DNA of 64,000 bases from Minisyncoccia bacterium (GTDB lineage Bacteria; Patescibacteriota; Minisyncoccia; Phycocordibacterales; UBA918): contig JBKJIT010000001.1 in assembly GCA_046598345.1 (NCBI GenBank), positions 108,251-172,250 on the forward strand, written 5' to 3'. Position 1 is the stretch's first letter. Every line of letters starts with the position of its first letter. Position numbers and translations under genes: made by a program. Under the pieces are notes generated by a model. The model ran no database searches. It was not told the origin of the DNA and worked only from the letters and a program-made list of their open reading frames with translations. This document shows positions 9,770 through 62,983 of this stretch, in pieces.

Positions 9770-9994
9770 ATGGAACCAGCAACAGTGCACGGCATTGCGC
9801 ATGAAGCTGCAGTGAGCCTGAATGACATCGAGCTGATTCAGTTGTGGTCCACAATGACTGCAACTCGATCACCTGACGCGGTGCAAAAGGTGCTTCGGGG
9901 AGAGCCTGGTTCGGCAATCTCGGACGCGCGGCTCCGTGAAGTCGCTGATGCGATGAGTGAGCGAAATCTGTTCTCGTCGATGTGTCTCCTGTAA
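9770..9994 (+). CDS. small hypothetical protein (74 aa)
   Basis: Strong RBS GGGGAGGAGAGT then ATG at 9770. Followed by terminator 10008..10040. Confidence 0.45.
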   Translation: MEPATVHGIAHEAAVSLNDIELIQLWSTMTATRSPDAVQKVLRGEPGSAISDARLREVADAMSERNLFSSMCLL

Positions 9995-10007
9995 AGGAAC
10001 ACCAATA

Positions 10008-10040
10008 CGCCCCGCGGCCTTCAGGCAGCGGGGCGGTTTC
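10008..10040 (+). terminator. rho-independent terminator
   Basis: cgccccgc ggccttcaggca gcggggcg gtttctg. A TATACT -10-like hexamer follows, ahead of the 10056 start. Confidence 0.6.
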
Positions 10041-10055
10041 TGTTATACTTTCAAT

Positions 10056-11966
10056 ATGTCATTTGATCCAAACAAGATCACGTTCTTTGCGCAAACCGAT
10101 GCGCGCGGTAAAAACGTGAAGTTTGGTATTAAAGCGAAGGATAGGCAGCGGCACGTGTACGTCATTGGAAAGACGGGAATGGGGAAGTCGACCATGTTGG
10201 AAAACATGGCGGCGCAGGATATTCAAAATGGAGAGGGTTTGGCATTCATCGATCCACACGGGTCCTCGGCTGAAAGTCTTCTTAATTACGTACCTGAACA
10301 TCGAGTAAATGATGTGCTCTATTTTGCGCCATTTGATACCGACCACCCAATTTCGTTTAACGTCATGGAGGATGTGGGGGCAGACAAGCGGCACCTTGTT
10401 GTGTCTGGACTCATGTCGGTGTTTAAGAAAATATTCGTCGATCAGTGGTCGGCGCGTATGGAGTATATTCTTTCGAATACGCTCCTTGCGCTTCTTGAGT
10501 TTCCAGACTCGACGCTTCTTGGAGTTAACCGCATGCTTTCCGATAAGGACTACCGTAAGAAAGTAATTGATAACATCACCGACCCATCCGTAAAGTCTTT
10601 TTGGGTGGATGAGTTTTTGAAATACAACGAACGATACATGCAGGAGGCGGGTGATGCGATCAAGAATAAGATTGGGCAATTTACTGCAAATCCGGTTATT
10701 CGCAATATTATCGGACAACCGAAGTCGTCGTTTGATATTCGGAAGATCATGGATGAAAAAAAGATCATCATTATGAATCTTTCCAAGGGTCTTATTGGTG
10801 AAACCAATGCGAATCTCTTGGGGTCTATGCTGACGACGCGTATTTATCTTGCGGCGATGAGTCGTGCTGACCTTAGCCCTGAGAAGATGCGCGATATGCC
10901 CAATTTCTATTTTTACGTAGATGAGTTCCAGTCGTTTGCAAACGCAACCTTCGCGAATATTCTTTCTGAGGCTCGTAAGTACCATCTCAATCTCACGATT
11001 GCACACCAATACATCGAGCAAATGGAAGAGGATGTGCGCAATGCTGTTTTCGGTAACGTAGGCACGACGATTGCGTTTCGAGTGGGGCCATTTGACGCTG
11101 AAGTCCTTGAGACCATTTTTACCCCACAGTTTCTTGCCGCCGATATTGTTAATTTAGGGTTTGCACAAGTCTATCTCACCTTAATGATCGACGGTATTGG
11201 TTCTCAGCCATTTTCTGCGACAACGCTACCTCCGATTGAGCCTCCTCTCATTTCCCATAAAAATATGGTGGTTGCGGCGAGTCGCAGACAATTTTCTCGT
11301 CTTCGGCCAGAAGTTGAAGCTCAAATTTTAAAATTCCATGAGCCGGTTGTTTTTGTAAAGAAGTTAGAAGAAAAGCCTGCCCTTCCTAAGCCTTCACCTG
11401 TGGAGGAAAAGAAGCTCCCCTACGTTACCTTACAACCTAAAACGGCAAGTACTCCAACAGTCTCCCGTCCACCGGCCGGTGTTCTGCACCATGAAGAAAC
11501 CCCTCATCGCGAATCTTCTTCGCACGGAGAATTTCTAAAACGGGAAGAGCGAAGGCAGGCTGAACGTCGGCTAAGCGAGCGGCCATCTCCAGCTTCTCTG
11601 CCACATAAACCCAAGGAACATAATCTAAATGAACTCAGATCTGTGCTTAAAAATATTGTGAGAGTGGACACAGAAAAAAATACAGAGGAAAACAAGATCC
11701 CCCACAAAGCGGAAAAATTTGAGGAGTCGCGAGGCGAACTGAAGAATCTTCTCAGTTCTGTCCTTAAGACAGCTCCGCCTCCGACTGCGCCTATCCCCTC
11801 ACCAGCTGCAGCTATATCTCCACCCACACCCACACCCACACCGTCACAGCCTCCTCAGGTAGAGGAGCGCATACCACCCCAGCCACCGACACCAGAAAGT
11901 GCGGTAACTCCTAAAGAACTTGAACGGATGATGCGGGTGACGACTAGTGATACTTCGCCGCTCTAG
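10056..11966 (+). CDS. HerA/DUF87-like (FtsK-HerA superfamily) P-loop ATPase with low-complexity Pro/Thr-rich C-terminal tail
   Basis: Walker A VIGKTGMGKST, then FIDPHG about 17 aa later (HerA/DUF87-style DPHGEY-like motif). IIMNLSKG and a Walker-B-like FYFYVDEFQSF. C-terminal 150 aa is disordered: PTAPIPSPAAAISPPTPTPTPSQPPQ. Confidence 0.6.
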   Translation: MSFDPNKITFFAQTDARGKNVKFGIKAKDRQRHVYVIGKTGMGKSTMLENMAAQDIQNGEGLAFIDPHGSSAESLLNYVPEHRVNDVLYFAPFDTDHPISFNVMEDVGADKRHLVVSGLMSVFKKIFVDQWSARMEYILSNTLLALLEFPDSTLLGVNRMLSDKDYRKKVIDNITDPSVKSFWVDEFLKYNERYMQEAGDAIKNKIGQFTANPVIRNIIGQPKSSFDIRKIMDEKKIIIMNLSKGLIGETNANLLGSMLTTRIYLAAMSRADLSPEKMRDMPNFYFYVDEFQSFANATFANILSEARKYHLNLTIAHQYIEQMEEDVRNAVFGNVGTTIAFRVGPFDAEVLETIFTPQFLAADIVNLGFAQVYLTLMIDGIGSQPFSATTLPPIEPPLISHKNMVVAASRRQFSRLRPEVEAQILKFHEPVVFVKKLEEKPALPKPSPVEEKKLPYVTLQPKTASTPTVSRPPAGVLHHEETPHRESSSHGEFLKREERRQAERRLSERPSPASLPHKPKEHNLNELRSVLKNIVRVDTEKNTEENKIPHKAEKFEESRGELKNLLSSVLKTAPPPTAPIPSPAAAISPPTPTPTPSQPPQVEERIPPQPPTPESAVTPKELERMMRVTTSDTSPL

Positions 11967-12148: not shown

Positions 12149-13015
12149 ATGGCTTCAGAAAAAACAGTGCTCATTACAGGAGGTGCGGGTTTCATTGGGT
12201 CCCATCTTTCGGAGCGACTATTAAAAGATGGGTACCGTGTCATCTCACTTGATAATTATTCCACTGGATCAAAGTCCAATCATATTGAGGGGGTCGAGTA
12301 TCGAGAAGGAGATACAAATGATATTGAGACTCTTGTATCTGAAACACCGGACCTAGTATTTCATCTGGGTGAATATGCGCGCGTCGAGCAAAGCTTCGGT
12401 GCGATTGAAAGAGTTCTTAAAAGTAATGTGATTGGGACAAAGCAGGTACTTGAATTTTGCAGAAAGCGGAAATGCAAATTAGTGTACGCAGGGTCGAGCA
12501 CAAAATTTGCCGACGGAGGTATTGGACGTGATCAGAGCCCGTATGCGTGGACAAAGGCAACGAACACAGAACTTGTACGCAACTATGGCGAATGGTTTGG
12601 TCTCAAATATGCTATTACCTATTTTTATAATGTGTACGGTGACAGAGAACGGAGTGATAGTGGCTCCGGAACAGTAATTGGAATATTCAAAGAACAGTAT
12701 GAGGCGGGAAAATCACTCACCGTACGCGCGCCAGGAACTCAGCGCAGAAATTTCACTCACGTTCACGACATTGTCGATGGGATTGTGCTCGTCGGGGAGC
12801 GCGGTGAGGGAGATGAATACGGTCTCGGACACAAGCATTCGTATTCTGTCCTTGAAGTGGCAGGAATGTTTGGGAGTGAAATTGAAATGCTCCCCGAGCG
12901 TCCCGGGAATCGCATGAATTCGTCAGTTGATTATAGCCGTGCCCGACTTGAACTTGGCTGGAAGCCTAAGCGCGATCTTCCGGATTACATCGCCTCCATC
13001 ACACACAATGGTTAA
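12149..13015 (+). CDS. NAD-dependent epimerase/dehydratase (short extended-SDR, 288 aa)
   Basis: TGGAGFIGSHL Rossmann motif. SDR fold. Confidence 0.8.
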   Translation: MASEKTVLITGGAGFIGSHLSERLLKDGYRVISLDNYSTGSKSNHIEGVEYREGDTNDIETLVSETPDLVFHLGEYARVEQSFGAIERVLKSNVIGTKQVLEFCRKRKCKLVYAGSSTKFADGGIGRDQSPYAWTKATNTELVRNYGEWFGLKYAITYFYNVYGDRERSDSGSGTVIGIFKEQYEAGKSLTVRAPGTQRRNFTHVHDIVDGIVLVGERGEGDEYGLGHKHSYSVLEVAGMFGSEIEMLPERPGNRMNSSVDYSRARLELGWKPKRDLPDYIASITHNG

Positions 13016-22428: not shown

Positions 22429-23439
22429 ATGCGACTACTCATCACCACTCAGACAGTTGATACAGAAGACCCTATTCTTGGTTTTTTTCATGGGTGGCTG
22501 ATTGAACTCTCTAAGCATGTTGAACATATTCATGTGGTGTGTCTTCGTAAAGGAGCCTACACCCTTCCGCAAAACATCACCGTTCACTCGTTGGGAAAAG
22601 AAGATCGACAAAATCGGCTCGCGTACGTTCTTACCTTTTATAAAAATGTGTGGAAGCTCCGCAACGAATACGACATTGTGTTTTCTCATATGAATCCCCA
22701 CTACATTGTTCTTGCAGGATTATTTTGGCTCATAACCGGCAAACGAATCTTTCTCTGGAGAAATCATGCGAAGATGAACATGAAGAGTCGTATCGCGGCG
22801 TGGTTTTCAAGACGTGTGTTTTACACTTCTCCGTATGCATGTATGCGGCGATTCCGGCATTCTATGCAGATGCCGGTGGGAATTGATACGGAATTATTTA
22901 AGCCACAGCCAGAAATCGTGCGCGAAGAGGGAACAGTCCTTTTTCTCGGCCGTCTTTCTCCAGTGAAGCGTCCTGAACTCATGATGGAAAGCACAAAGCA
23001 TGTGCCGGAGCTTCGTATACATGTGTACGGGGACGAGCCCGGCGGCTCGCATACGTATGGTGACGCACTGAGGGCACAGAGTGGGGAAAACACTTCCTTT
23101 TTTCCTTCGCTTCCAAATTATAAAACTCCGAAAGTGTACGCTGCTCACGATATCTATGTAAATCTTACTCCAGAAGGAAGTATGGATAAAACGGTTCTTG
23201 AGGCCGCAGCATGCGGCACACTCGTGCTCGTTTCAAATCGCTCGTTCCAGGATGTATTACCACCGGAATGTACTCTCGCCCATGACCGACCGGAAGATAT
23301 TGGAGCAGCACTTCGAACACTCATACATCTTGCCCCAGAGAAAAAAAATAGCTATCGTGTAACCTTAAACCAAATGGTTCTTGAGTCCCATTCTCTAAAG
23401 AAACTTGTGAACACCCTCATTAGTCAGTTTGCATCATGA
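22429..23439 (+). CDS. glycosyltransferase (GT4/GT1-like)
   Basis: TVLFLGRLSPVKRPELMM and LEAAACGTLVLVSN GT-B C-terminal half. Confidence 0.6.
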   Translation: MRLLITTQTVDTEDPILGFFHGWLIELSKHVEHIHVVCLRKGAYTLPQNITVHSLGKEDRQNRLAYVLTFYKNVWKLRNEYDIVFSHMNPHYIVLAGLFWLITGKRIFLWRNHAKMNMKSRIAAWFSRRVFYTSPYACMRRFRHSMQMPVGIDTELFKPQPEIVREEGTVLFLGRLSPVKRPELMMESTKHVPELRIHVYGDEPGGSHTYGDALRAQSGENTSFFPSLPNYKTPKVYAAHDIYVNLTPEGSMDKTVLEAAACGTLVLVSNRSFQDVLPPECTLAHDRPEDIGAALRTLIHLAPEKKNSYRVTLNQMVLESHSLKKLVNTLISQFAS

Positions 23440-24278
23440 CACATATCGATTTCATAGGTATCGGAGCGCAAAAATCAGCCACATCGTGGGTGTATGCCTG
23501 TCTCTACGAACATCCGCAGATTTGTGCACCGATTAAGGAAATACACTTCTTTAGTCGCCCTCGCTTTAGCGAGGGAAAAGAGTGGTATGAAGATCATTTT
23601 AAACGCTGTGGAGAAGGAAAACTGTGTGGGGAATTTTCGACCTCGTATCTGTATTCGAAAGACGCGCCCCTGCGCATTCATTCTTTGTACCCGAACGCTA
23701 AACTTATTGCCATCCTTAGGAATCCTATTGATCGCGCATACTCGCACTATCGAAATGCAATCAAGGCGGGAGAAATCAAGGAATCAGAATCGTTTGAATC
23801 GTTCAGCGCACGGGAAGTGAGTGTGCTGGAGCAGGGTCTCTTCACACAGCAGCTCACGCGGTATTTCGAACTTTTCCCGCGCGAGCAAGTCCTCATTCTT
23901 ATTCAGGAAGATATTGAAAAAAGTCCGGAGGCATTTATGGAACGGATTTTTACGTTTCTAGGAGTCGACTCTACTTTTGTGCCAACTATGCTCCATACGC
24001 AAGTAAATGTTGGACGCATCCCAAAACGTGTGTTTATTGACCGCATGATGACGCACACTGCAGAATTTCTCCGAAAGATTGGATTTGATCGCTTTGTGTG
24101 GATTATTCGGAAACTTGGAATGCCCGACTTTGTGCGTTCATTTAATACTAAGGAGGGCAAGAAAGAAGGTAAGCCTCCCTATGATCGCGGAGCACTCGCA
24201 GCGTATTTTCGAGATGATGTGCGCGGCCTCACAGAATTTTTGGGGCGTGATATGGTAAAGGAATGGAACCTCGAGTAA
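23436..24278 (+). CDS. sulfotransferase family protein (PAPS-dependent)
   Basis: 5'-PSB motif GAQKSATSW near the N-terminus and 3'-PB-like ILRNPIDRAYSHY. 280 aa. Confidence 0.7.
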   Translation: MTHIDFIGIGAQKSATSWVYACLYEHPQICAPIKEIHFFSRPRFSEGKEWYEDHFKRCGEGKLCGEFSTSYLYSKDAPLRIHSLYPNAKLIAILRNPIDRAYSHYRNAIKAGEIKESESFESFSAREVSVLEQGLFTQQLTRYFELFPREQVLILIQEDIEKSPEAFMERIFTFLGVDSTFVPTMLHTQVNVGRIPKRVFIDRMMTHTAEFLRKIGFDRFVWIIRKLGMPDFVRSFNTKEGKKEGKPPYDRGALAAYFRDDVRGLTEFLGRDMVKEWNLE

Positions 24279-26937: not shown

Positions 26938-28056
26938 ATGTTCTCTTTTTTCAAAGACAAACAGATTGCCCTCATTTTACTCGCAGTGGTGAGCGTGATA
27001 ATCGCATTTACGTATGTCGACAGTCATGCCATAAACGCGATAGGAAGCCCGCGGGTATGGAGTCCGGATACACAAACCTATATAGAAGCAATGAAATTCA
27101 TAGAGGGAAGCAGCACAGGGCCTCTCGAGCCTGTTGTGGCGACCCGGCTCCTCACTTCACCGTTATTGCTCACCTCGGCGCTGGGAATAAAATACATAGT
27201 AGGGGACTACGGATACGGCATTTTGTTTCTAAATTTTGTGCTGTATTTAGTGTCCGTTATTCTTTTTTATCAGTTAGCCCTTCAAATATACAAACAGGAA
27301 AGAATAGCTTTCATCGCTGCTTTTTTATATATCACCAATTGGTGTCTGTTTTCATTTGGCACTACCTATCTTTCAGATATGGGTGGTTGGTTTTTCTTCT
27401 TGCTCACCTCACTCCTCAGTGTTCTGTACTATCTTAAAAATAGAAGCGTATATTTGTATGCCGCAATAGCTGCCGCATGTATTGGCGTGCTCTTTAAAGA
27501 ATACGGCGCGCTCGGGATTATCAGTTTAGGAATGCTTATCATACTAGGCGCTCGTACATGGGGGCAGAAGATTCGAGATATTTTAGTTGCAGGGGTTTCT
27601 TTTCTATTGGTCTTAGTGGCCTACCACGCATGGTTTTATTTCCAGTTTGACTGGAGCTATGTAGATTGGTACCAGTATAATCACCAGCAATATCGAGAGA
27701 ATACCTACAAAACACTTGGTGCTGCCATTAGTACACTTATAAAAGTTATCGGGTGGGTGTTTCTCGCAGGATGGCCTTTTTTCGCGATGGGAGTATGGTA
27801 TGAGATCAAAGATGTCCTAGGACGAAATTACAGTCGCGCTATTCTACTTCTAGGACTCTTGCCTGCCTCGCTCTTTTTCCTTGTGTGGCCTGCTTTTACT
27901 CAGCGTGTTGCATTCACACTCGTTCCGTGGGTTGCATTAATAGCGGCGTATGGTCTCTCAAAAATACAAAAAACATGGTTTCTTGTAGTGCTACTCCTCA
28001 TCTATGCACTCATAAACTATCACGTGGACATACTTATGATAGTAATTAATATATAA
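26938..28056 (+). CDS. polytopic integral membrane protein, putative GT-C-like glycosyltransferase / polymerase
   Basis: About 10 TM helices with one larger loop near the N-terminus. No soluble domain. Located inside the glycan cluster. Confidence 0.5.
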   Translation: MFSFFKDKQIALILLAVVSVIIAFTYVDSHAINAIGSPRVWSPDTQTYIEAMKFIEGSSTGPLEPVVATRLLTSPLLLTSALGIKYIVGDYGYGILFLNFVLYLVSVILFYQLALQIYKQERIAFIAAFLYITNWCLFSFGTTYLSDMGGWFFFLLTSLLSVLYYLKNRSVYLYAAIAAACIGVLFKEYGALGIISLGMLIILGARTWGQKIRDILVAGVSFLLVLVAYHAWFYFQFDWSYVDWYQYNHQQYRENTYKTLGAAISTLIKVIGWVFLAGWPFFAMGVWYEIKDVLGRNYSRAILLLGLLPASLFFLVWPAFTQRVAFTLVPWVALIAAYGLSKIQKTWFLVVLLLIYALINYHVDILMIVINI

Positions 28057-42015: not shown

Positions 42016-42975
42016 ATGGATATTGATGCATCTGCTAGGTCAAGGAAGGTTATACGTGAAGCGATTAATTCCCTCAAGGAATTTCAGAATCTCGATGAGA
42101 GATTTTGGAACGAGTTGTGTTCCCGTGTTCAGAATCGCAAGGGTAAGCTTGTGCTTACGGGAGTGGGGAAGTCAGGTTACATCGCTATGAAAGTTGCTGC
42201 CACACTCACAAGTCTTGGAAATTTTGCGACGTTTATACATCCTGTTGAAGCAATGCATGGAGATTCCGGTGGGGTAACTGAGGGGGATACGGTAATTGCT
42301 TTCTCGTATTCTGGAAACACAAAAGAACTGATTCAGTTTATGCGTCACATCAAGGAAAGAATGGAAGTGTCTTTGATTGGTGTTACAGGTGCGAGGGATT
42401 CACAACTCGGCAAACTTTCAGATATGGTGATCCTTATTACAATTCAGGAAGAGGGTAGTCCGTATAACCTTGCTCCTATGGCATCCACCACAGCAATGCT
42501 TGTTGCCGGGGATGCACTTGCAGCGGGTCTAACTTCTCCACAGACTTTCACAAAAAATGATTTCGCTCGTTATCACCCAAGTGGTACACTCGGCTTTTCA
42601 CTCACCTCAGTGAAAGAAAGAATGTTACCTCATACTCCTGACGATATGGTTGGTGAAGATACTGAACTGCAAGAAGTGTTACTCCATATGAGCAACATTG
42701 GAAAGGGGATAATTGGGGTCATTTCCCCGAATGGCGCACTTACGGGAGCAATAACCGATGGTGACATACGGAGATTCCTATGCACAAATATTTCAATCGA
42801 AGGTGCACATGCAAAAGATGCAATGAATGTGACGCCAAAGTATGTTCAGCATAACCACACACTTAAAGATGCACTTGAGATGATGGAATCTTTTAAGATC
42901 ACAAATGTCTTTGTTATCAACGAGGAAAGCATACCAATTGGCATCCTTCACATGCATGATATTTTAAGCTCATGA
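42016..42975 (+). CDS. kpsF: arabinose-5-phosphate isomerase (KpsF/GutQ family: SIS + tandem CBS)
   Basis: RBS AAAAGGAGG. SIS domain LVLTGVGKSGYIAMKVAATLTSLG. Two C-terminal CBS-like repeats. Confidence 0.75.
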   Translation: MDIDASARSRKVIREAINSLKEFQNLDERFWNELCSRVQNRKGKLVLTGVGKSGYIAMKVAATLTSLGNFATFIHPVEAMHGDSGGVTEGDTVIAFSYSGNTKELIQFMRHIKERMEVSLIGVTGARDSQLGKLSDMVILITIQEEGSPYNLAPMASTTAMLVAGDALAAGLTSPQTFTKNDFARYHPSGTLGFSLTSVKERMLPHTPDDMVGEDTELQEVLLHMSNIGKGIIGVISPNGALTGAITDGDIRRFLCTNISIEGAHAKDAMNVTPKYVQHNHTLKDALEMMESFKITNVFVINEESIPIGILHMHDILSS

Positions 42976-44441
42976 GAGAAGAGATAGATTTTAGTTACGC
43001 CCTCGAATTTTATAATCGATTGGAAGCTGTCCACATGGACAATCTCCCCCTCACGAAATATTTTGAATGTGAAGGGTCTGACTATTGGCAATTTTACAAA
43101 CAGAGGATTTTTGAAGAAATTAAGACTTTTAGTCGAACAAAGCACATAGTGCGACCAAGGGCGAATCGTTTTAGTAAGACGGTAGATTTTTGCGTGTATG
43201 TCGGGGTCGTTCTCTCAACTGTGTTTTCTTTAATGCGTAAAAGAAAGGCGCTAGTGTATGCAATTGATAAAGTAGACCCAGTGCACAAGAGTGATTTTAG
43301 GCTTTCTACCGTGTATGCATTTCTTAAGAGAGCACAGATATCTTATCTAGAAATCTTCCATACCGTGATAGGGGGTGCGACCATCAAGCATTTCTTTCAG
43401 CGAAGGCGAATTGTTACCTACCTCGAAGCAGCCGATCGTCTCTATCCCATAGCAGTATGGCTCAAGCTCCATAAGCCTCTCGAGCTGGCTGTAGTTACAA
43501 ATATAGCCCTAGAAAATTTTAGTGAAAGAGAAAGAGAATTCGCCATTACTCTCATACAAAAATATCTACGTCAAATCGATATTTCTCGTTTTAAAATTAT
43601 GTTTTTTTCCTTTCTTATGCGAAAAAGCAAATGCAAAATATTTCTTGCAATTGACGATGCTCGTTATTATTACGAACTCTTAAGAGCGGCAAAACTTGCC
43701 AAGGTTCCAAGCTATGCCTTCCAGCATGGACACTTTACGAAATACCATGTTGGATGGCTTAGATCTAATAATCAGTATGGCGAGTCGACCTATCCAGATC
43801 ATTTTTTAGTTTCGAGTGAATATTGGAAACAGGAACTAACTAGGTTGGGTGGGATTATGCCATCACATACTATTCTTGTCTCTGGAGACAAGACGCCTAC
43901 ACCAGACACTGCGTTTAGGGACATGCGTGAGGAAAGTAAGATACATATTCTTATCCCTTACGAAACAGCGTGCCCAAAGCATGAAGTTGCAGTGTATATA
44001 CGCAGCTTTCTGAGTATAAAAAATGTTCATGTGATATTTAAGCTTCGCCCAGATATGTCTACAGCTGAACAATTGAAGGAGTACGGCCTACAAGAATTAA
44101 AGGACTCACGGTTTGAGACCGCGGTAGATATTGGGGAATGTATAGAAAGAGTAGATATAGTTGCTGGAGTCTATTCAACATTTCTATATGACATGATTTT
44201 ATATAAGAAGCGAGTTGTTATCCTTGACACCTCATCTGATTATGGTGAGGGCATGTACGAAAACGGCTTGGCGGATCTTTTGAAGCGAGGGCGTGATCTT
44301 GAGACTTTTATATGGCAAATTAAAAAATTGCCGGACTCACTAATTGTGGAAAGAAAAACAAAATTATTAGCTAATGGAATTACACTGGAACAGACATTGA
44401 AAGATATAGTTGAAAAACATATTCATGACCGATTACTTTAA
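42972..44441 (+). CDS. hypothetical protein, possibly a capsule-synthesis (KpsS/KpsC-like) or TagF-like glycosyl/phosphotransferase
   Basis: 489 aa with no clear motif. Placed by synteny between kpsF and a kdsB-like gene. A QHGHF motif is present. Confidence 0.35.
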   Translation: MREEIDFSYALEFYNRLEAVHMDNLPLTKYFECEGSDYWQFYKQRIFEEIKTFSRTKHIVRPRANRFSKTVDFCVYVGVVLSTVFSLMRKRKALVYAIDKVDPVHKSDFRLSTVYAFLKRAQISYLEIFHTVIGGATIKHFFQRRRIVTYLEAADRLYPIAVWLKLHKPLELAVVTNIALENFSEREREFAITLIQKYLRQIDISRFKIMFFSFLMRKSKCKIFLAIDDARYYYELLRAAKLAKVPSYAFQHGHFTKYHVGWLRSNNQYGESTYPDHFLVSSEYWKQELTRLGGIMPSHTILVSGDKTPTPDTAFRDMREESKIHILIPYETACPKHEVAVYIRSFLSIKNVHVIFKLRPDMSTAEQLKEYGLQELKDSRFETAVDIGECIERVDIVAGVYSTFLYDMILYKKRVVILDTSSDYGEGMYENGLADLLKRGRDLETFIWQIKKLPDSLIVERKTKLLANGITLEQTLKDIVEKHIHDRLL

Positions 44442-44558: not shown

Positions 44559-45818
44559 TTACTTAGGACGATACATTTTGAACAAAATATAGAGCATAAA
44601 ACAATGCACAATATAGAAAATTAGAAGGGAGAAGACAGCGCCCCATATACCATATATAGGTACTAAGATAATGAGCGGTATAATCCGAATCACTGGTTTT
44701 GTAATGTTGAGTATGTACAATTCTTTTTTACTTCCGAGTGAGGTTAGTGCTTGTGTATAAAGGGTAAGAGGAATAGTGAAGAGTGTAAGAGAAAGTACTT
44801 GGGAATATCTCACTGCTTCTTGATATTCAGGAAAAAAATGGATAAAGAGAAATTCAGCGAATGTAATATAAGAAAGAATAAGGACGATGCTAATAAGAAA
44901 AGTAATAAACATTTTATGTGGAAGCGCATCCCTCAGTTCTTCATAGGTGCGTGTACTAAATTTCGGCAATATAAGTGAACGAATGATCTTTGAAGTACCA
45001 TGAAGTTGCCGTATCGGAGCGAGAGCAATGGCATAGATAGCGAGAGAGGTTGCTCCTAGAAGCTGAAAAATAATGACTTTATCAATATATGTAGAAAAGT
45101 TAGAGAATGAATCCATGAGACTCAAGTGTTTTCCCAAAGAAAGAGATTTGTTGTCTACAAATGCATTTTTGTCGATCTTCCTGACCAAGAGAAAATAACG
45201 AACTGAAGAAATAATCATATTTGAAAGAAAGAGAGTGAGCACAGCATAAATGACATCTTCAGTGAGATAGGCAACCAGGATGACACTAGTTGTGATAGCA
45301 ATATTTTTGTATATGTTATCGTTAGCAATCTTAGTAAATTGTTTTTTGCCGTTAAAATATGATCCGTAGAGTGAGGATGCATATAAGAGAGGCGAGCAGA
45401 GCCCGATAATTAGGAGCGAGTATCCGAGAACATCATTATTCTTGTAAAGGTAGTATGATCCCCCCAGAAGTGTTAACAACGATACGGGAATGGTCCATTT
45501 AAGTTTAAGAAGGAAACCTTTTATTAGAGTACGCTCAGATCCACGGGCCACTGCTTGCGCTACTGAAATGTCCAATCCAGAGAGAGTAAATGCAGCAATC
45601 ATACTGGCGATTGAAAGAATATACGCATAAAATCCGTACTCAGCTGGATTAAAGATTCGTACCAGGCAAAGGGTAAGTACAAATCCAGAGATACCGGCAA
45701 AGATTTGACCAATAGTAAGTACCATAGTTCCTTTAGCCAAATACCGGACATCTGTCTTAAGGTAAGGCTGTAATCTACTTGCAAGACGATTAAGAATATA
45801 AATTGATCTTTTTTTCAT
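44559..45818 (-). CDS. Wzx-like oligosaccharide flippase (MOP/polysaccharide biosynthesis protein family)
   Basis: 419 aa, 12 to 14 TM. N-terminal LAKGTMVLTIGQIFAGISGF typical of Wzx/PST family. Confidence 0.7.
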   Translation of the reverse strand: MKKRSIYILNRLASRLQPYLKTDVRYLAKGTMVLTIGQIFAGISGFVLTLCLVRIFNPAEYGFYAYILSIASMIAAFTLSGLDISVAQAVARGSERTLIKGFLLKLKWTIPVSLLTLLGGSYYLYKNNDVLGYSLLIIGLCSPLLYASSLYGSYFNGKKQFTKIANDNIYKNIAITTSVILVAYLTEDVIYAVLTLFLSNMIISSVRYFLLVRKIDKNAFVDNKSLSLGKHLSLMDSFSNFSTYIDKVIIFQLLGATSLAIYAIALAPIRQLHGTSKIIRSLILPKFSTRTYEELRDALPHKMFITFLISIVLILSYITFAEFLFIHFFPEYQEAVRYSQVLSLTLFTIPLTLYTQALTSLGSKKELYILNITKPVIRIIPLIILVPIYGIWGAVFSLLIFYIVHCFMLYILFKMYRPK

Positions 45819-49674: not shown

Positions 49675-51321
49675 ATGCAGAATGAAGAGCAAAAAGAGGA
49701 TATTCTGAACCTTCCGCGCCTTAATGTTAAAGGTCGTCAACTTCACGATCTTGAGGTAATGCTCGTAGGTGGATTTTTCCCAGTTGAGGGCTTCATGGAT
49801 GAGGCAGACTACAATGCTGTCGTCGAGACTATGCACCTCGCAGATGGACAGATTTTTCCTATTCCTATTGTCCTCGACGTGCCACACGATAGCCCATATC
49901 ACGTAGGGGATCGAATCCTCCTCTGTGATCCGTTTGGAAATCCGCTTGCGATCATGAACGTGAGTTCGCGATTTACGCCAGATAAGCAAAACGAAGTACT
50001 AAAGGTCTATGGTACAGATGACCCAATGCATCCGGGTGTTCAGTATGTCCTCGATGAAATGCATGATACCTATATTGGTGGACCGGTAGCACATTTGGCA
50101 CTTCCAGTACGTCATGATTTTAAGCAGTGGAGACGGACACCGGCAGAACTCAAGGCACTTTTTAAAGAACGAGGTTGGGACAAGGTCGTTGGGTTCCAAA
50201 CACGTAACCCAATGCACCGCGCACATTTTGAGCTCGTGAAGCGTGCGTCAGAGACGGTTGGCGCACCAGTCCTCATTCATCCTGTAGTTGGTATGACGAA
50301 ACCGGGCGACATTGATTATGTCACTCGTGTGCGAACGTATAATGTTGTGCATTCAAAGTATGGAAAAGACTTTACAGAACTTTCGCTCTTACCGCTTGCA
50401 ATGCGAATGGCGGGACCGCGTGAGGCAGTGTGGCACTCGATCATTAGGCGAAACTACGGCTGCACGCACTTCATTGTGGGGCGCGATCATGCGGGGCCAG
50501 GAAAGGGAAGTGACGGCAAAGATTTTTACGGTCCGTATGAGGCCAGAGATCTTGCGCTTACTTGTGCGGACGAAGTAGGAATCACCATTGTGCCTTCGGA
50601 CGAACTCGCATATTCAAAGACACGCGATGCGTATGTTTCGACGAGTGAAGTAACTCCGGAGGACGAGATTGAGAATATTTCCGGCACTGAATTCCGACGC
50701 CGACTCTTTGCAGGAGAAGAAATTCCCGATTGGTTTTCATTTAAGGAAAGCATTGATATTTTACGCCAAAGTGTGAAGCGCGATACGCGCCCTGGAGTAG
50801 CTGTGTTTTTTACGGGTCTTTCATGTTCCGGAAAATCAACGCTTGCAAACCTTCTCCTTGCACGACTCCAGGAAATCCAAGACAGAGAGATTACACTCCT
50901 CGATGGCGATTTGATTCGGGCACACCTTTCAAAAGGACTTGGATTCTCAAAGGAGGATCGGGATGAAAATGTGAAGCGTGTCGGGTTTGTGGCGAGCGAA
51001 ATTGTGCGACACGGGGGTATTGTAATTTGCGCCCTTATTGCACCGTACAAGGATGCACGTCGCTACGTACGCAACCTGATCGAGCAGCACGGTGAATTCG
51101 TTGAAATTTTTGTCGAGACCTCGCTCGAAGAATGTGCTCGTCGCGATACAAAGGGTCTCTATGAAAAGGCGAAGCAGGGACTCATTAAAAATTTCACGGG
51201 CGTTGATGATCCGTATGAGATTCCTGAAAGCCCTGAACTTGTGGCCAAAACGGAGGAGGCGACTCCTGAGATGCTTGTCGAAGAAATCATTTCTAGCTTG
51301 AAAGACCGCAAGGTACTGTAA
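49675..51321 (+). CDS. bifunctional sulfate adenylyltransferase (Sat-type ATP sulfurylase) / adenylylsulfate kinase (CysC): PAPS synthase
   Basis: GFQTRNPMHRAHFEL and GRDHAG motifs of ATP sulfurylase. C-terminal APS kinase P-loop GLSCSGKSTLAN. Confidence 0.85.
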   Translation: MQNEEQKEDILNLPRLNVKGRQLHDLEVMLVGGFFPVEGFMDEADYNAVVETMHLADGQIFPIPIVLDVPHDSPYHVGDRILLCDPFGNPLAIMNVSSRFTPDKQNEVLKVYGTDDPMHPGVQYVLDEMHDTYIGGPVAHLALPVRHDFKQWRRTPAELKALFKERGWDKVVGFQTRNPMHRAHFELVKRASETVGAPVLIHPVVGMTKPGDIDYVTRVRTYNVVHSKYGKDFTELSLLPLAMRMAGPREAVWHSIIRRNYGCTHFIVGRDHAGPGKGSDGKDFYGPYEARDLALTCADEVGITIVPSDELAYSKTRDAYVSTSEVTPEDEIENISGTEFRRRLFAGEEIPDWFSFKESIDILRQSVKRDTRPGVAVFFTGLSCSGKSTLANLLLARLQEIQDREITLLDGDLIRAHLSKGLGFSKEDRDENVKRVGFVASEIVRHGGIVICALIAPYKDARRYVRNLIEQHGEFVEIFVETSLEECARRDTKGLYEKAKQGLIKNFTGVDDPYEIPESPELVAKTEEATPEMLVEEIISSLKDRKVL

Positions 51322-51515: not shown

Positions 51516-51540
51516 TAAACCTGTAACCAGGTTTTGTCTC
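51516..51540 (+). terminator. hairpin aacctg-taac-caggtt followed by a T-rich stretch; weak terminator
   Basis: Sits about 200 bp downstream of the PAPS synthase stop. Confidence 0.35.
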
Positions 51541-51608
51541 TCTTTATACAGGGGAGGGTATCTCGTGGTATAGTCTTCGACACATGAATCCCATTAAGAG
51601 TAGAGGGA

Positions 51609-53843
51609 TTGCGCAAAGAGTTACTAACTTTTAATTTCACTCGGATGAAAGATATTGCAAAAGGAATAGTGTATTTGGGAGTTTTTGCCATCCCATTTAT
51701 TCCCCTCATTATTTCCAACACAATGTTTTTTCCCTTTATTACGGGAAAAAATTTCACCTTCCGCGTCATTGTTGAAATTATTTTTGCAGCATGGATACTA
51801 CTCGCTCTCTATGAACCTCTCTATAGGCCACGTTTTTCGTGGATAGTCGCTGGGTTTACATCGCTCCTCGTCGTAATGTTTTTTGCGAATCTTTTCGGGG
51901 CAAACCCGCTCCAGAGTTTTTGGAGCAATTTCGAACGTATGGAAGGGTATGTCACCTTGGTGCATATGTTCCTCTACTTTCTTGTGGCTGGGAGTGTACT
52001 TACTACTGATAAGCTTTGGAACCGTTTTTTCAACACAACACTTTTTGCAGCAGTACTCCTCTCGCTCTATGCATTTGCGCAGCTTTCTGGGAATATTGTT
52101 ATCAATCAGGGAGGATGGCGTCTCGATGGAACTCTGGGTAATTCAGCGTATATGGCAATCTATATGCTTTTCCACAGCTTCATAGCGCTCTTTATGCTTG
52201 TACGGACGCGTACTCGAGGACTTCAATACACGTATGGGGCGCTTTTAATTCTATTCATTTTTCTTCTCATACAGACAGCGACTCGCGGTTCAATAATCGG
52301 ATTTTTCGGGGGCCTCTTTGTGACAACGCTCTACATCACGCTATTTATCAAGGATCATCCACGAGTTCGTAAGGTAGCAATATCTTCACTCGTTGCTGTG
52401 GTTGCTCTTGTTGGACTCTTTGTTGCATTTAGGGACTCAGCACTTATTCAAAGCAACCCCTACCTCGGTCGAGTCGCGAACATAACGCTGAGTGAAGGAA
52501 ATGTACGTTTTAAAGTGTGGAATATGGCGATTGAAGGATTTAAGGAACGCCCAGTTCTTGGATGGGGACAGAGTAATTTCAACTACGTTTTCAATGAGCA
52601 CTATGATCCATCAATCTACTTTGCTGAATCATGGTATGACCGGGTGCACGATATTGCATTCGATTGGCTCATTGCAGGGGGTGTCTTAGGATTCATTGCG
52701 TACTTCTCGATTCTAGCTGCAGCACTCTACTACCTTTTCTTTAGACCACTCTTTAAGAAAGACGATGAGTCAATGACTGTGGTTGAGCGGGGTGTGCTCC
52801 TCGGTCTCCTTGCGGGATATGTCTTCCATAATATTTTCGTGTTCGACAACATCGTAAGTTATGTCTATTACGGAACCATCCTCGCATTTATTCATTCACG
52901 TGTTGCGTCGGCAATACCCAAGGTGGCAGCAGCAAAATTTGACACGCGTGTACTCGAACAGATTGCTACACCTGTTGTTGGGGTCGCACTCTTGTTTGTG
53001 ATCTACTTTGTGAATGCACCGGGTATTCGAGCTGCGAGTGACATTATTGATGCATTTTCAACACAGTCTCCAGACGCAGCCTTCCAACAGTTTGACGAAG
53101 CACTCTCGCGTAATTCATTTGGAAACCAGGAAATCCGGGAACAGCTCACGAGACAGGCACAAGCACTCATCCAGGATCCTAAAGCCGATGCAGCTCTTAA
53201 GGAAAAGGTGAAAGCACGTGTGGAAGAAGAGCTCATTAAGCAGATTGAGGAAAAGCCTAATGATGCACGTGTGCATGTATTCATTAGCTCCTTCTATCGA
53301 ATGACGGGGGATATTGATAAGGCAATCGAACAACTCGAAATAGCTCGTTCTCTTTCTCCACAAAAGCAGCAAATTATTTTTGAACAGGGGCTCGCGCATC
53401 TCCAGAAGGGTGAGAACGACATAGCACTCGCATACTTTAAAGAGGCGTATGATCTTGCACCTTCTTACTCGGAAGCCGCAGTATTCTATGCAGTTGCAGG
53501 ACTTTTCGCGGGGAAGCCAGAGATTATAGACGAAGTTCTTACCACCAAAGAGCTTAGAGATAGCTTCTCAGAAAATGATCTTGCCGTGCAAGCTGCGTAC
53601 AGCACGAAGCAATTTGATGTTCTCGAAAATATATTTAAGACTCGAATAGAACGGAAACCGGAAGATCCTCAGGCACGTACCAATCTTGCGTTTATCCTGA
53701 ATGAACAGGGTAAAACAACCGAGGCGATTGAAATTCTGAACCAAGCAGCGAAAGATATTCCGTCATTTGAAGGACAGTCACAGCAGTTTATTGCGAGTCT
53801 CCTTGCGGGAAACAGTCCAACGACGAGCCCTGTAGCACCGTAG
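51609..53843 (+). CDS. O-antigen ligase-domain (Wzy_C) membrane protein fused to C-terminal TPR repeats; putative O-oligosaccharyltransferase or polymerase
   Basis: About 12 TM N-terminal half with TATRGSIIGFFGGL (Wzy_C-like loop). The C-terminal 300 aa is soluble, helical and TPR-like. Confidence 0.65.
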   Translation: MRKELLTFNFTRMKDIAKGIVYLGVFAIPFIPLIISNTMFFPFITGKNFTFRVIVEIIFAAWILLALYEPLYRPRFSWIVAGFTSLLVVMFFANLFGANPLQSFWSNFERMEGYVTLVHMFLYFLVAGSVLTTDKLWNRFFNTTLFAAVLLSLYAFAQLSGNIVINQGGWRLDGTLGNSAYMAIYMLFHSFIALFMLVRTRTRGLQYTYGALLILFIFLLIQTATRGSIIGFFGGLFVTTLYITLFIKDHPRVRKVAISSLVAVVALVGLFVAFRDSALIQSNPYLGRVANITLSEGNVRFKVWNMAIEGFKERPVLGWGQSNFNYVFNEHYDPSIYFAESWYDRVHDIAFDWLIAGGVLGFIAYFSILAAALYYLFFRPLFKKDDESMTVVERGVLLGLLAGYVFHNIFVFDNIVSYVYYGTILAFIHSRVASAIPKVAAAKFDTRVLEQIATPVVGVALLFVIYFVNAPGIRAASDIIDAFSTQSPDAAFQQFDEALSRNSFGNQEIREQLTRQAQALIQDPKADAALKEKVKARVEEELIKQIEEKPNDARVHVFISSFYRMTGDIDKAIEQLEIARSLSPQKQQIIFEQGLAHLQKGENDIALAYFKEAYDLAPSYSEAAVFYAVAGLFAGKPEIIDEVLTTKELRDSFSENDLAVQAAYSTKQFDVLENIFKTRIERKPEDPQARTNLAFILNEQGKTTEAIEILNQAAKDIPSFEGQSQQFIASLLAGNSPTTSPVAP

Positions 53844-53902
53844 TGGATTGTGCGCTTGACGCAGGAAGTCTAGCAGCTATACTTACGCATGAGTCCACGT
53901 TG

Positions 53903-54190
53903 TGGAGCTCTAAATTTGAAAGTTTAACGTAAAGATCCCCGGGGTGGGGATTTTTGCGTTTTAGGGTGTGCCTCAACGTAGAAATCCTCACCCCGGGTGG
54001 GTGAGACAGTCTGGGGGAGTGTCGCAAGACTTTGAACTCTAATTTAGTCTCCCAGACTAAATTAGTATGAAAAGTTACAGCCGCTGTATGCGGTTTTTGC
54101 GTTTTAGGGATGGTATACTACGAGGAGCTCGTCTTTCGATATGGCTAGTAGCGGCGCTCACAATATTTAAACTTTCAATTAATTTGGAGT
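53903..54190. repeat. MITE-like non-coding element: imperfect terminal inverted repeats (ggagctctaaatttgaaagtttaa ... ttaaactttcaattaatttggagtcc) enclosing internal palindromes and a 16-nt direct repeat
   Basis: Internal perfect hairpin ctaatttagtct-ccc-agactaaattag. Palindrome atccccggggtggggat. tttttgcgttttaggg appears at about 53950 and about 54097. Confidence 0.4.
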
Positions 54191-54230
54191 CCTGCCCCTA
54201 CTGGCCATATTGGCAGATGAGTTTTATTGT

Positions 54231-55319
54231 ATGCCTTCTACTGTAAGAGAAAAGGTCCCCTTGGCCCCGTACACCACGCTTGGGATTGGTGGGGTTGCAG
54301 AATATTTTGTAGACCTGGAACATATATCGTTGTTTACAGATGTTGCAGAGTGGGCACGTGAGAAGAAACTCCCTATAACAATTCTCGGGGGAGGATCGAA
54401 TGTACTTATAGCTGATGAAGGAATTCAAGGACTCGTGATACACATGAGGACTACGGGCGTCAGGGTTCTCCATGAGGATGAGGATACCGTAGTGATTGCC
54501 GCTGCTGCAGGAGAATCGTGGGATACACTAGTGAATTTCGCAGCGGAATCGGGATACTGGGGTCTAGAAAATCTCTCGGGTATTCCGGGAAGCGTCGGCG
54601 CAGCTCCCATTCAAAATATCAATGCGTATGGAATAAGTGTAGGGGACTCTGTGTCTCACGTGCAGGCAGTCAATCTACTGACCTTAGAGGAAGTGAGTTT
54701 TTCAAAAGAAGAGTGTGCGTTTCAGTATCGCGATAGTTTTTTCAAATCAGAGAAAGGACGTGAGTTTCTTATAACCACTGTGAATGTTGTATTGCAAAAA
54801 AGACGAGGCGCAGTACTCAAGTATCGGAGTTCGTCACAGAGCATCGAACGACTTCTTTCGGAAGAAGGGATAACCGACCCAACTCCTCGTGATATACGAA
54901 GGGGAATTCTCCATATGCGACGAAACATTGGCATGCTTCTTGGGATGTATCAATCCGCAGGGTCATTCTTTAAAAATGTTCTCCTAAGTCAAGAGGAGTT
55001 TACGCGGCTCGCTGAAATAGTTGCAGCGAAGTACGGAGAAAAATCTGGAATACTTTCTCCCTGGCACTGGGAAGTGGAAGGGGGGCTTTATAAAGTGTCT
55101 ACAGCGTTTCTCATGGAGTGCACTGCATACAACAAAACGGATTTTAAAGAAAAAAGCTTTAGGGGTGTGGTGGGTATTTCACCAGGTCATACACTCTCGC
55201 TCGTTAATCAGGGCAGCGCACACGCAGCAGATGTTCGTGCGTTTGCAAAAGAGATACAGGAGACTGTACATGCAACATTTAATATTCTTATTGAACCTGA
55301 AGTACTTTTTCTTCCCTAG
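54231..55319 (+). CDS. murB: UDP-N-acetylenolpyruvoylglucosamine reductase
   Basis: LAPYTTLGIGGVAEYF and ILGGGSNVLI FAD-binding motifs. C-terminal MurB domain. Confidence 0.8.
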   Translation: MPSTVREKVPLAPYTTLGIGGVAEYFVDLEHISLFTDVAEWAREKKLPITILGGGSNVLIADEGIQGLVIHMRTTGVRVLHEDEDTVVIAAAAGESWDTLVNFAAESGYWGLENLSGIPGSVGAAPIQNINAYGISVGDSVSHVQAVNLLTLEEVSFSKEECAFQYRDSFFKSEKGREFLITTVNVVLQKRRGAVLKYRSSSQSIERLLSEEGITDPTPRDIRRGILHMRRNIGMLLGMYQSAGSFFKNVLLSQEEFTRLAEIVAAKYGEKSGILSPWHWEVEGGLYKVSTAFLMECTAYNKTDFKEKSFRGVVGISPGHTLSLVNQGSAHAADVRAFAKEIQETVHATFNILIEPEVLFLP

Positions 55320-61935: not shown

Positions 61936-62035
61936 AATAAATCGTTATCTCGGATTGACGCTGTAAAGCTATCCACCATGTATTTGCATGATATCTCTGG
62001 TATTCCAGGGCGGTTCTTGTATACTTGTCGTGATG

Positions 62036-62983
62036 GATACACTCGTTCTTGATGGGAAGAGTTTTATGAAAGCGTCTAAGGCTGCGCGAGATCTCGGCTA
62101 CACTGCTGATTACGTTGGTCAACTTTGTAGAAGTGGAAAGGTCCCTGCACACCTTGTGGGAAGAACCTGGTACGTGGATGCAGCACACCTCGGTGAGCAT
62201 CGGGTTGAAAAGAAGCGTATGGCACGAGTTAAAGCTCGTGAGCAGGCACACAAAGCACTTGAGGAACACAGGTTACTTCGAATTCAGACGGAAACTGATC
62301 CAAAGCCAGGGCGGCGAATTGCCTATGCAGAAGATCGGAGTGAGCTGATTCCAAAGCCCCGTAAGCTTACTATTGCAAGTGAGTACGAGCCTCGAGAGCC
62401 TGTTGTTTTAGAGGAAACTGCTGATCCTTTTATTATCGAAAATAAGGGAGAGAAAATCCTCATGGAGGGCAAAATTAAGATTTTTGATGCAAATGATGAT
62501 GCGCTTACTGACCCAGACACAATAATTCTTCATCCAAAAATACAGAGAAAACATGGAAAACCTGAAGTAATAGAAGTGAGCGAGAAGAAAACACCAACAG
62601 CCCATGAGGTGCACTTAATTGTTTCCGAGGAAATAGGGGAAACTGAGGTTGATCTACCTATTCAGACCGATTCAGTACCTTCTAAGCCCGCCTTTGCAAG
62701 CTTTGCTGATCGTCTTGAGAGCATGGAAGACACAAAAGTTCCTGCAGTAAGTAGTAAGCCTATTCCAGATCAAGAACCAGTAGTTTCACCAGTTAAACCA
62801 CCTAGGAAATCGATCGCTGTTCCGCTAAGCGTCATCTTTCTAGCGGTTATCATTATCGTTCTATCATTCGGAGTTGGAAGTCTGTGGCAGGTTACGACAA
62901 GTCAGGATACCTCTGGACTACTCAGTATCTCGTACTACTTCGAAACACAGTCAACCATTAACTTTATATTAAGCAAAATATAG
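62036..62983 (+). CDS. membrane-anchored protein with N-terminal HTH-like domain, basic coiled linker and C-terminal TM
   Basis: KSFMKASKAARDLGYTADYVGQLCRSGKVPAHLVGRTWYV (HTH-like). KR-rich linker. TM IAVPLSVIFLAVIIIVLSF. Paralog of the 63428 gene. Confidence 0.5.
   Translation, partial: DTLVLDGKSFMKASKAARDLGYTADYVGQLCRSGKVPAHLVGRTWYVDAAHLGEHRVEKKRMARVKAREQAHKALEEHRLLRIQTETDPKPGRRIAYAEDRSELIPKPRKLTIASEYEPREPVVLEETADPFIIENKGEKILMEGKIKIFDANDDALTDPDTIILHPKIQRKHGKPEVIEVSEKKTPTAHEVHLIVSEEIGETEVDLPIQTDSVPSKPAFASFADRLESMEDTKVPAVSSKPIPDQEPVVSPVKPPRKSIAVPLSVIFLAVIIIVLSFGVGSLWQVTTSQDTSGLLSISYYFETQSTINFILSKI

Follow-up and report, generated by a model that had tools for sequence, protein, structure and literature searches.

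Gene and domain architecture

The window analyzed in this study, a 64,000-nucleotide stretch of contig JBKJIT010000001.1, contains a large island of glycan biosynthesis genes and, at its border, a forward-strand gene (positions 51645 to 53843) that encodes a 732-residue protein in which a membrane-embedded Wzy_C (O-antigen ligase) domain is followed by a tetratricopeptide repeat (TPR) domain. This gene is referred to below as the ligase gene. The original prediction had proposed its product as a candidate O-oligosaccharyltransferase (O-OTase) that links the glycan to proteins. The open reading frame (ORF) called mechanically extends from a TTG codon at 51609 to 53843 and comprises 744 residues. 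The true start is likely the ATG at 51645, because the database protein P0001 (732 residues, 100% identical) and the aligned relatives begin at this methionine, 12 codons inside the 744-residue ORF. M1 was invariant in an alignment of 48 sequences. Unless the 744-residue form is named, residue numbers refer to the 732-residue form.

The Pfam Wzy_C profile (PF04932) matched positions 52242 to 52706, corresponding to residues 212 to 366 of the 744-residue form, with an E value of 9.9e-16 and a score of 58.3 bits, above the gathering score of 31.7. Several TPR families exceeded their gathering thresholds between approximately residues 530 and 720, including TPR_19 (7.9e-12) and TPR_16 (1.2e-11). 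NCBIfam yielded no equivalog, only a subthreshold match to the IctB family (39 bits against a cutoff of 366) and generic TPR matches. More than 2,858 homologues share the two-domain architecture and the length of about 725 to 750 residues, so the predicted fusion is real and fixed and cannot be attributed to a chance match or misassembly.

Predicted structure, topology, and catalytic residues

Modeling with AlphaFold2 from 48 homologues gave a mean predicted local distance difference test score (pLDDT) of 85.5 and a predicted template modeling score of 0.80. The model comprises 13 transmembrane (TM) helices, of which nine precede and four follow a 75-residue loop with short helices (residues 262 to 336). 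TM helices 1 to 9, forming a WaaL-like core (residues 1 to 261; positions 51645 to 52427), were delimited by the model, topology, and residue mapping; they include the invariant residues R159, in an outer loop, and R214, which corresponds to WaaL Arg-191. The large extracytoplasmic loop (52428 to 52652), assigned from the model, topology, and conservation and presumed catalytic, harbors the invariant residues R276, R288 (WaaL Arg-265), E328, D332, R333, and H335 (WaaL His-313). TM helices 10 to 13 (337 to 370, 379 to 398, 403 to 420, and 434 to 472; positions 52653 to 53060 for residues 337 to 472) were placed by modeled secondary structure and charge counts. Segment 403 to 420 was ambiguous by hydropathy alone. 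In the model it pairs with segment 379 to 398 as the second arm of a hairpin of helices, with invariant D401 located at the outer turn. The 13th TM helix is additional to the WaaL core and returns the chain to the outside. Beyond it lies the C-terminal domain (53061 to 53804), all-helical from residue 476 to 720, in which three linker helices (473 to 536) are followed by about five to six TPR-like helix pairs (537 to 720); its pLDDT was mostly 86 to 95. Its invariant residues are E496 and E499 in the linker and R542, P572, and K574 in the TPR part.

With the N terminus inside, lysines and arginines numbered 8 in 41 residues of the inside loops and 2 in 53 residues of the outside loops. The 13th TM helix and the positive-inside rule therefore lead to a predicted topology in which the N terminus is cytoplasmic and both the catalytic loop and the TPR domain are outside the cell, which was the location that the original prediction depended on. 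An outward catalytic loop is consistent with the need to meet a flipped glycan linked to undecaprenyl diphosphate (Und-PP) on the outer face of the membrane.

In a full-length Foldseek comparison with the PDB, TPR proteins (consensus TPRs and the TPR superhelix of OGT) crowded the list. The sole membrane protein among the top 50 was the WaaL structure 7TPG, with a TM-score of 0.68 on the target over 453 columns and 15% identity. A full-length phmmer search of the PDB also gave a weak match to 7TPG (E = 0.056), aligning query residues 201 to 329 with chain residues 166 to 294 at a constant offset. This offset places R214 on Arg-191 and R288 on Arg-265, and it brings H335 within one residue of His-313, the spacing of the triad being 74/47 here and 74/48 in 7TPG. 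When the membrane domain alone was searched against PDB sequences, as a six-sequence profile or a single sequence, no match was returned at an E value of 10 or less, and an AlphaFold model of the membrane domain alone from a six-sequence alignment had a pLDDT of 42.

The three triad residues were invariant in all 78 full-length family members (40 to 79% identity) that were aligned, as were R159, R276, E328, D332, R333, D340, and D401 among the membrane and loop residues and E496, E499, R542, P572, and K574 in the outward C-terminal domain. The mean frequency of the commonest residue was 0.69 in the catalytic loop, the most conserved region of the protein, compared to 0.49 in the TPR part. [quoted passage not shown] The profile match above threshold, the 12-TM core with a long outer loop, and the Arg/Arg/His triad place the protein in the Wzy_C/WaaL superfamily. 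As modeled, it has the WaaL fold, to which one TM helix and an outward TPR domain are added, and the predicted site for Und-PP binding and acceptor activation is intact.

Family size and host lineage

A scan of one genome per species detected a relative in at least 541 genomes, and matches were full-length (approximately residues 1 to 725) down to 40% identity. The best 80 of these genomes were all Patescibacteria and comprised Kaiser-, Campbell-, Taylor-, and Nomurabacteria, Paceibacteria, and some records loosely labeled Saccharibacteria. All named homologues in the homologue search were from Candidatus Kaiserbacteria or Pacebacteria; the Kaiserbacteria are part of the Parcubacteria, a group within the Patescibacteria. 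For the membrane domain, 2,273 clusters matched at an E value of 1e-30 or less among clusters built at 50% identity from about 15 billion proteins. Of the best 150 of these clusters, 144 were represented by proteins of at least 660 residues, leaving room for a C-terminal extension. A literature search pairing candidate phyla radiation (CPR), Parcubacteria, or Patescibacteria with O-antigen ligase found nothing, among the papers listed, that links the Wzy_C-TPR family to the CPR. The family appears to be known so far under automated names only, such as "O-antigen ligase family protein" and "O-antigen ligase/TPR repeat protein." It is a very large member family of a known superfamily rather than a new system, as a generic annotation exists and WsfB of Paenibacillus alvei provides a precedent.

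These relatives suggest that the host is a Kaiserbacteria-like member of the Parcubacteria within the CPR. A CPR-like host had already been supposed in the original prediction and agrees with the taxonomy of every named relative and with a curated Parcubacterium genome that lacks genes for lipid A and lipopolysaccharide (LPS), including lpxC and kdsA (PMC5220378). The same evidence bears on the automated name, according to which the protein would be a genuine LPS O-antigen ligase acting on lipid A-core. The WaaL fold and the catalytic triad are in line with that function, and the neighboring island encodes a KpsF-like protein and a CMP-sugar (possibly CMP-Kdo) synthetase. Nevertheless, the window contains no lpx genes, and the matched WaaL chain in 7TPG (403 residues) has neither the 13th TM helix nor the TPR domain. 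Given the lineage, an LPS acceptor is extremely improbable.

Glycan island and conserved synteny

Glycan biosynthesis genes extend from about 12.1 kb to 51.3 kb of the window, which bears out the 42-kb cluster described earlier. According to Pfam scans and GC content, the island upstream of the ligase gene, its presumed donor pathway, occupies positions 12149 to 49602. It contains nine ORFs with GT4-type (Glycos_transf_1) matches, a single weak, subthreshold GT8 match, NAD-dependent epimerases/dehydratases, several methyltransferases, two AsnB-like amidotransferases, two polysaccharide deacetylases, UDP-sugar dehydrogenase fragments, a KpsF-like SIS and CBS domain protein, a NeuC-like 2-epimerase, and the CMP-sugar synthetase. 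Pfam matches also identified a Wzx-type flippase (44559 to 45818, reverse strand) and a sulfotransferase (23436 to 24278). Directly upstream of the ligase gene and on the same strand lies a gene for a bifunctional ATP sulfurylase/adenosine phosphosulfate kinase (Sat/CysC; 49675 to 51321), a 3'-phosphoadenosine-5'-phosphosulfate (PAPS) synthase that would supply PAPS to the sulfotransferase of the island. The presence of both genes implies that the surface glycan is sulfated.

The ligase gene was located at the 3' border of a glycan island in all five contexts with called genes (55 to 74% identity). The order in these contexts was a variable glycan island, usually Sat/CysC, the ligase gene, and then murB, secA, a holin-like gene in some cases, obg, and gatB. 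Homologues of the glycan genes in the window were found upstream in 49 of the 71 loci that have at least 3 kb of upstream sequence, out of 85 related loci. In a Pfam census of the two upstream neighbors (142 proteins), methyltransferases, GDP-mannose-dehydratase/epimerase-type proteins, PAPS synthase, Wzx, GT4/GT2 glycosyltransferases, and cytidylyltransferases dominated. Sat/CysC was encoded upstream in 19 of the 85 loci and was directly adjacent in four of them (L001 to L004). With a median identity of 79% over the 19 loci, PAPS synthase was the best-conserved gene of the neighborhood, which deserves mention for genomes so reduced. The conserved position of the ligase gene supports a functional tie between it and the glycan island.

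The degree of conservation differed sharply along the locus. Between the window and nearer relatives, the ligase was 54 to 74% identical, similar to Obg and GatB and above MurB. The Wzx proteins of the same loci mostly showed 26 to 32% identity (54% in L004), and most island genes had no counterpart in related loci. O-ligases use different donors with the same acceptor, a pattern that contrasts with that of polymerases (PMC10920833). The stable ligase beside a variable Wzx and island fits a terminal ligase that transfers glycans en bloc from many donors to one conserved acceptor.

This pattern is relevant to a further explanation, in which the protein is a Wzy-type polymerase that joins flipped repeat units into a long polysaccharide. 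The Pfam Wzy_C model covers some polymerases too. Such an enzyme would also fill a gap in the island: a flippase is present, but hydropathy and Pfam scans of the window revealed no separate Wzy candidate, and only three proteins of the locus are polytopic (eight or more TM segments predicted by hydropathy), namely, Wzx, a PMT_2-like GT-C glycosyltransferase, and the ligase. On the other hand, polymerases co-vary with the repeat unit, whereas the ligase was retained while glycosyltransferases were replaced. The best structural match was WaaL, and the acceptor-activating position carries the invariant histidine typical of ligases and O-OTases. Because of this histidine and the conservation decoupled from Wzx and the glycosyltransferases, a Wzy polymerase was rejected as very improbable.

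The gene for the PMT_2-like protein (26938 to 28056; 372 residues, nine predicted TM segments by hydropathy) is situated at a break in GC content, and no homologue of it was detectable in the 85 related loci. In enzymes of the PMT_2 type, sugars carried by polyprenyl phosphate serve to modify lipids, glycans, or proteins outside the membrane, which makes the protein another candidate, besides the ligase, for extracytoplasmic glycosylation. GC content was 0.35 to 0.44 in genes between about 27 and 49.6 kb and 0.45 to 0.50 elsewhere in the window. The ligase gene (0.446) and Sat/CysC (0.486) resemble the core genome in this respect. Glycan genes at 12 to 27 kb also have a core-like GC content, so that two subclusters are apparent, and the distal one (about 26900 to 49600) has probably been horizontally exchanged or is hypervariable. 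In L001 (7338 to 7886) and L002 (7590 to 8121), toxin-antitoxin pairs (RelB/YafQ-like and ParE-like) are located exactly where the variable island meets the conserved block of Sat/CysC and ligase, which fits a boundary of recombination or exchange.

Pairing with murB and a possible cell-wall role

The gene that follows the ligase gene in the window is murB (54210 to 55319, forward strand), a conserved downstream neighbor, and secA, a gene for a VTT-domain protein, obg, and gatB come next. Enough downstream sequence was available for 62 of the 85 loci. In 51 of these, the first gene downstream on the same strand was murB; the gap had a median length of 14 bp and measured 60 bp or less in 32 cases. 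In addition, the island of the window is located between murD/murC (3.5 to 6.4 kb) and murB. These observations favor an explanation in which the enzyme is directed at the cell wall, ligating the glycan to peptidoglycan or lipid II in place of, or alongside, LCP-type enzymes, while the TPR domain docks the machinery of peptidoglycan synthesis. The fold can handle substrates of the lipid II type, since a single point mutation is reported to let Escherichia coli WaaL attach peptidoglycan to LPS (PMC4296511). Gram-positive members of GT121 have been speculated to ligate capsule to peptidoglycan (PMC10920833).

The synteny itself can be read differently. SecA, Obg, and GatB are kept in the same conserved order, so the adjacency of murB may be plain collinearity of a streamlined genome, and we did not accept it as proof of a cell-wall role. 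In the window, moreover, the two genes are separated by 366 bp with terminator-like hairpins. No WaaL-family enzyme is known to ligate naturally to peptidoglycan. A cell-wall acceptor is therefore judged improbable, although a variant of the overall proposal could hold in which peptidoglycan or lipid II is the conserved acceptor and the protein is a WaaL-fold ligase of cell-wall glycopolymers.

The ligase-murB spacer of the window (53844 to 54209) is unusual in more than its length. Its predicted folding energy was -92.5 kcal/mol over 226 nt (z = -7.0), and two long inverted repeats span 53938 to 53997 and 54029 to 54075. A 16-nt sequence, TTTTTGCGTTTTAGGG, occurs at both 53951 and 54094 as an exact direct repeat. 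Two blocks of the spacer were conserved at the nucleotide level and in the same position in eight relatives (L001, L006, L008, L012, L013, L014, L040, and L054). The conserved core, AAAGrTCCCyGGGGTGGGGrYTTTT, resembles a terminator, with a GC hairpin followed by a run of T, and in some genomes an alternative downstream pairing partner is available for it. The core could be a simple terminator, an attenuator of murB, or a small RNA; in Rfam, the spacer matched nothing above noise. A consensus scan upstream of the ligase gene located a terminator-like hairpin (51517 to 51534) and then a promoter-like site with an extended -10 element (51545 to 51574; both forward strand). This arrangement weakly suggests that the ligase gene is monocistronic in this genome.

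Several further features of the window were recorded. A 489-residue protein with one predicted TM segment (42972 to 44441), encoded between the KpsF-like gene and wzx, had no Pfam match at an E value of 0.01 or less and may be an unrecognized glycan-modifying enzyme; large proteins without a family (562 to 593 residues) occupy similar positions in L002, L003, and L004. Between the mur genes and the island lies a gene for a 669-residue ATPase (9957 to 11966) that resembles TrwB/VirD4, i.e., a type IV secretion coupling protein or a HerA-type ATPase. After gatB, positions 61988 to 62983 encode a 331-residue protein without a Pfam match that is kept in 31 related loci. By eye, it has an N-terminal helix-turn-helix-like region and a hydrophobic segment near the C terminus, and it may be a membrane-anchored DNA-binding protein. 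The first 3,500 positions of the window contain no ORF longer than 132 residues, and a tRNA-Ile(GAT) gene is located at 1886 to 1960.

Function and acceptor

Taken together, we consider it quite probable that the protein is a terminal WaaL-type ligase with an outward TPR domain, operating in a Wzx-dependent surface-glycan pathway of a CPR bacterium. The donor, en bloc transfer, and above all the acceptor are inferred. In the proposed mechanism, the island would build an oligosaccharide on a polyprenyl diphosphate carrier, probably sulfated and with a nonulosonic or Kdo-type residue, and Wzx would flip the carrier-linked glycan outward. R214 and R288 of the ligase would bind the diphosphate while H335 activates an acceptor hydroxyl, so that a conserved non-LPS acceptor on the membrane's outer face would receive the glycan en bloc and with inversion. 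The 13th TM helix would set the TPR domain outside, beside the catalytic loop, where the invariant residues E496, E499, R542, and K574 may form a docking site for the acceptor or for a partner that presents it. A glycolipid, as in the case of TacL, or the cell wall accords with the data as well as protein does; the attachment of strain-specific surface glycans to a conserved non-LPS acceptor is what we regard as most likely.

Among these acceptors, protein was ranked first. The enzyme would then be an O-OTase of the WsfB type, acting on Ser, Thr, or Tyr of S-layer proteins, pilins, or other envelope proteins, a reading that we put forward tentatively. It was preferred because invariant charges on a TPR domain that faces outward suggest that a macromolecule docks there. 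A second reason is that WsfB, itself a predicted O-OTase of a monoderm, also combines Wzy_C with a C-terminal TPR motif, whereas WsaB, which lacks TPRs, has the TPR protein WsaA encoded beside it (PMC2943079). Finally, genes for type IV pili and several pilins are present in Parcubacteria (PMC5220378).

Several observations weigh against a protein acceptor. The PglL_A (PF15864) and Wzy_C_2 (PF11846) domains were absent from the ligase even at an E value of 1 or less in a Pfam scan. No pilin-like, S-layer, or Ser/Thr-rich candidate ORF and no prepilin motif were found in the window, no prepilin gene was present in 1.2 Mb of sequence flanking the 85 related loci, and the 25 most frequent Pfam families in the upstream census included no pilin or S-layer family. 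Likewise, the window lacks a priming phosphoglycosyltransferase recognizable by Pfam scans. The Arg/Arg/His triad is common to WaaL ligases and PglL O-OTases (PMC3643930) and, therefore, cannot separate the two. TPR domains are also reported to act as scaffolds in polysaccharide export (PMC2943079), and the tight, probably cotranscribed murB pairing of relatives could point to the cell wall instead. A pilin-dedicated OTase of the TfpO type was rejected, since pilin genes adjoin the ligase gene neither in the window nor in the 85 loci.

A glycolipid is the other acceptor that has to be considered seriously. In this explanation, the protein resembles TacL and transfers an Und-PP-linked glycan to a membrane glycolipid anchor, giving a lipoglycan or a product like lipoteichoic acid, while the TPR domain serves as a scaffold contacting envelope machinery. 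Transfer to a sugar hydroxyl of a glycolipid is the native chemistry of the WaaL fold, a monoderm needs the Wzy_C protein TacL for ligation onto a glycolipid (PMC5727136), GT121 ligases are reported to be common in Gram-positive bacteria (PMC10920833), and the lack of a nearby protein acceptor candidate in the window and the 85 loci is in its favor. However, a lipid acceptor has no obvious need for a 260-residue outward TPR domain whose invariant charges are fixed throughout the family, and TacL itself has 397 residues and no extra domain (PMC5727136). Pfam scans recognized no teichoic-acid-type genes in the island. Fatty-acid synthesis was also missing from the curated Parcubacterium (PMC5220378), although scavenged lipids could still be glycosylated. 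On balance, glycolipid ligation appears rather unlikely.

The original prediction of an O-OTase is thus plausible and partly supported, though unproven. The fusion, the CPR host, the outward TPR domain, the WsfB precedent, and the linkage to the island speak for it; the missing PglL_A and Wzy_C_2 domains and a triad shared with WaaL do not. The pilin or S-layer substrate that it had suggested looking for was not found in the window, nor was a prepilin gene in the flanks of the 85 loci. Its description of the cluster as a general O-glycosylation system is a reasonable hypothesis.

Implications for the CPR envelope

CPR/Patescibacteria live as episymbionts and rely on contacts between their surface and host cells. 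How their envelope is structured and assembled has been described as unclear (PMC5220378). Here, a family that is near universal in one CPR radiation combines housekeeping-like conservation with a position beside hypervariable islands for sulfated glycans. One conserved WaaL-type enzyme at a fixed site next to a fast-changing island, in hundreds of species, offers a handle on the major surface glycoconjugate of the CPR and on its acceptor, and it brings the question of the CPR envelope within experimental reach.

A more specific and still more tentative proposal is that the family constitutes an unrecognized, Parcubacteria-wide, murB-linked class of O-OTases, apart from PglL, PglS, TfpO, and TfpM, in which the TPR domain selects envelope proteins. 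If so, S-layer proteins or pilins would bear hypervariable, partly sulfated glycans, and protein glycosylation would be near universal as a core trait of the CPR surface and would likely help to determine how host cells are recognized. A protein acceptor would make this a large, phylogenetically deep O-OTase class with a built-in TPR module for acceptor recognition, of interest for glycoengineering as a donor-promiscuous enzyme with a modular acceptor domain. With a lipid or cell-wall acceptor, the family would represent a new type of anchoring of envelope polymers in monoderms.

Comparison with known systems

In fold and chemistry, the closest known system is WaaL of Cupriavidus metallidurans (7TPG; CAZy family GT121, GT-C_B fold). 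Both proteins have Wzy_C, a twelve-TM core, a long outer loop, and two Und-PP-binding arginines and an acceptor-activating histidine at nearly equal spacing (predicted here for the CPR protein), and both genes belong to a variable Wzx-type glycan locus and occupy its conserved end. At about 15% identity, the CPR protein differs in its 13th TM helix and its extracytoplasmic TPR domain of approximately 260 residues, and its acceptor must differ as well, as the host lineage is without lipid A. The TacL protein of Streptococcus pneumoniae shares with it Wzy_C, the monoderm setting, and, as proposed here for the CPR protein, ligation of an Und-PP-linked polymer to a non-LPS acceptor. Unlike the CPR protein with its 732 residues, the 397-residue TacL has no TPRs, and it uses a teichoic acid chain as the donor and a glycolipid as the acceptor. 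Wzy/BP-Pol polymerases, of the inverting clan GT-C1, are set apart by Asp or Glu instead of His and by their co-variation with the repeat unit.

Among O-OTases, PglL and PglS of Neisseria and Acinetobacter have in common with the CPR protein the Wzy_C core, the Arg/Arg/His triad, and, as proposed for the CPR protein, donor promiscuity with a conserved enzyme, and the PglL gene is similarly unlinked to its substrate gene. By the criterion of domain content (PMC12645811, PMC3643930), the CPR protein is distinct in lacking PglL_A and Wzy_C_2. Furthermore, PglL and PglS act in the periplasm of diderms, and a full TPR domain was not described for them in the literature consulted for this comparison. 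The pilin-linked enzymes TfpO/PilO, TfpM, and PglS are distinguished by the location of their genes beside that of the cognate pilin or pilin-like substrate (criterion from PMC12645811), which does not apply to the CPR gene. Fusion of a glycosyltransferase to TPRs that serve to select protein acceptors is also known from eukaryotic TMTC1-4 and OGT. The TPR part of the model matched the OGT superhelix in Foldseek, but the catalytic domains and donors are unrelated, so this likeness is an analogy only.

In architecture, the closest counterparts are WsfB of P. alvei, a predicted S-layer tyrosine O-oligosaccharyltransferase, and the WsaB and WsaA pair of Geobacillus stearothermophilus. The likeness, drawn from described domain architecture, consists of a monoderm host, Wzy_C with a C-terminal TPR motif or a TPR protein from an adjacent gene, and a surface-glycan locus. 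Also, wsfB was reported to be monocistronic, as the CPR ligase gene apparently is here. The differences are that neither the window nor the related loci yielded an S-layer gene close to the CPR gene and that the CPR family is syntenic with murB and conserved in all Parcubacteria-type relatives sampled. As far as models and alignments indicate, the CPR protein is thus WaaL-like in fold and chemistry and WsfB-like in architecture.

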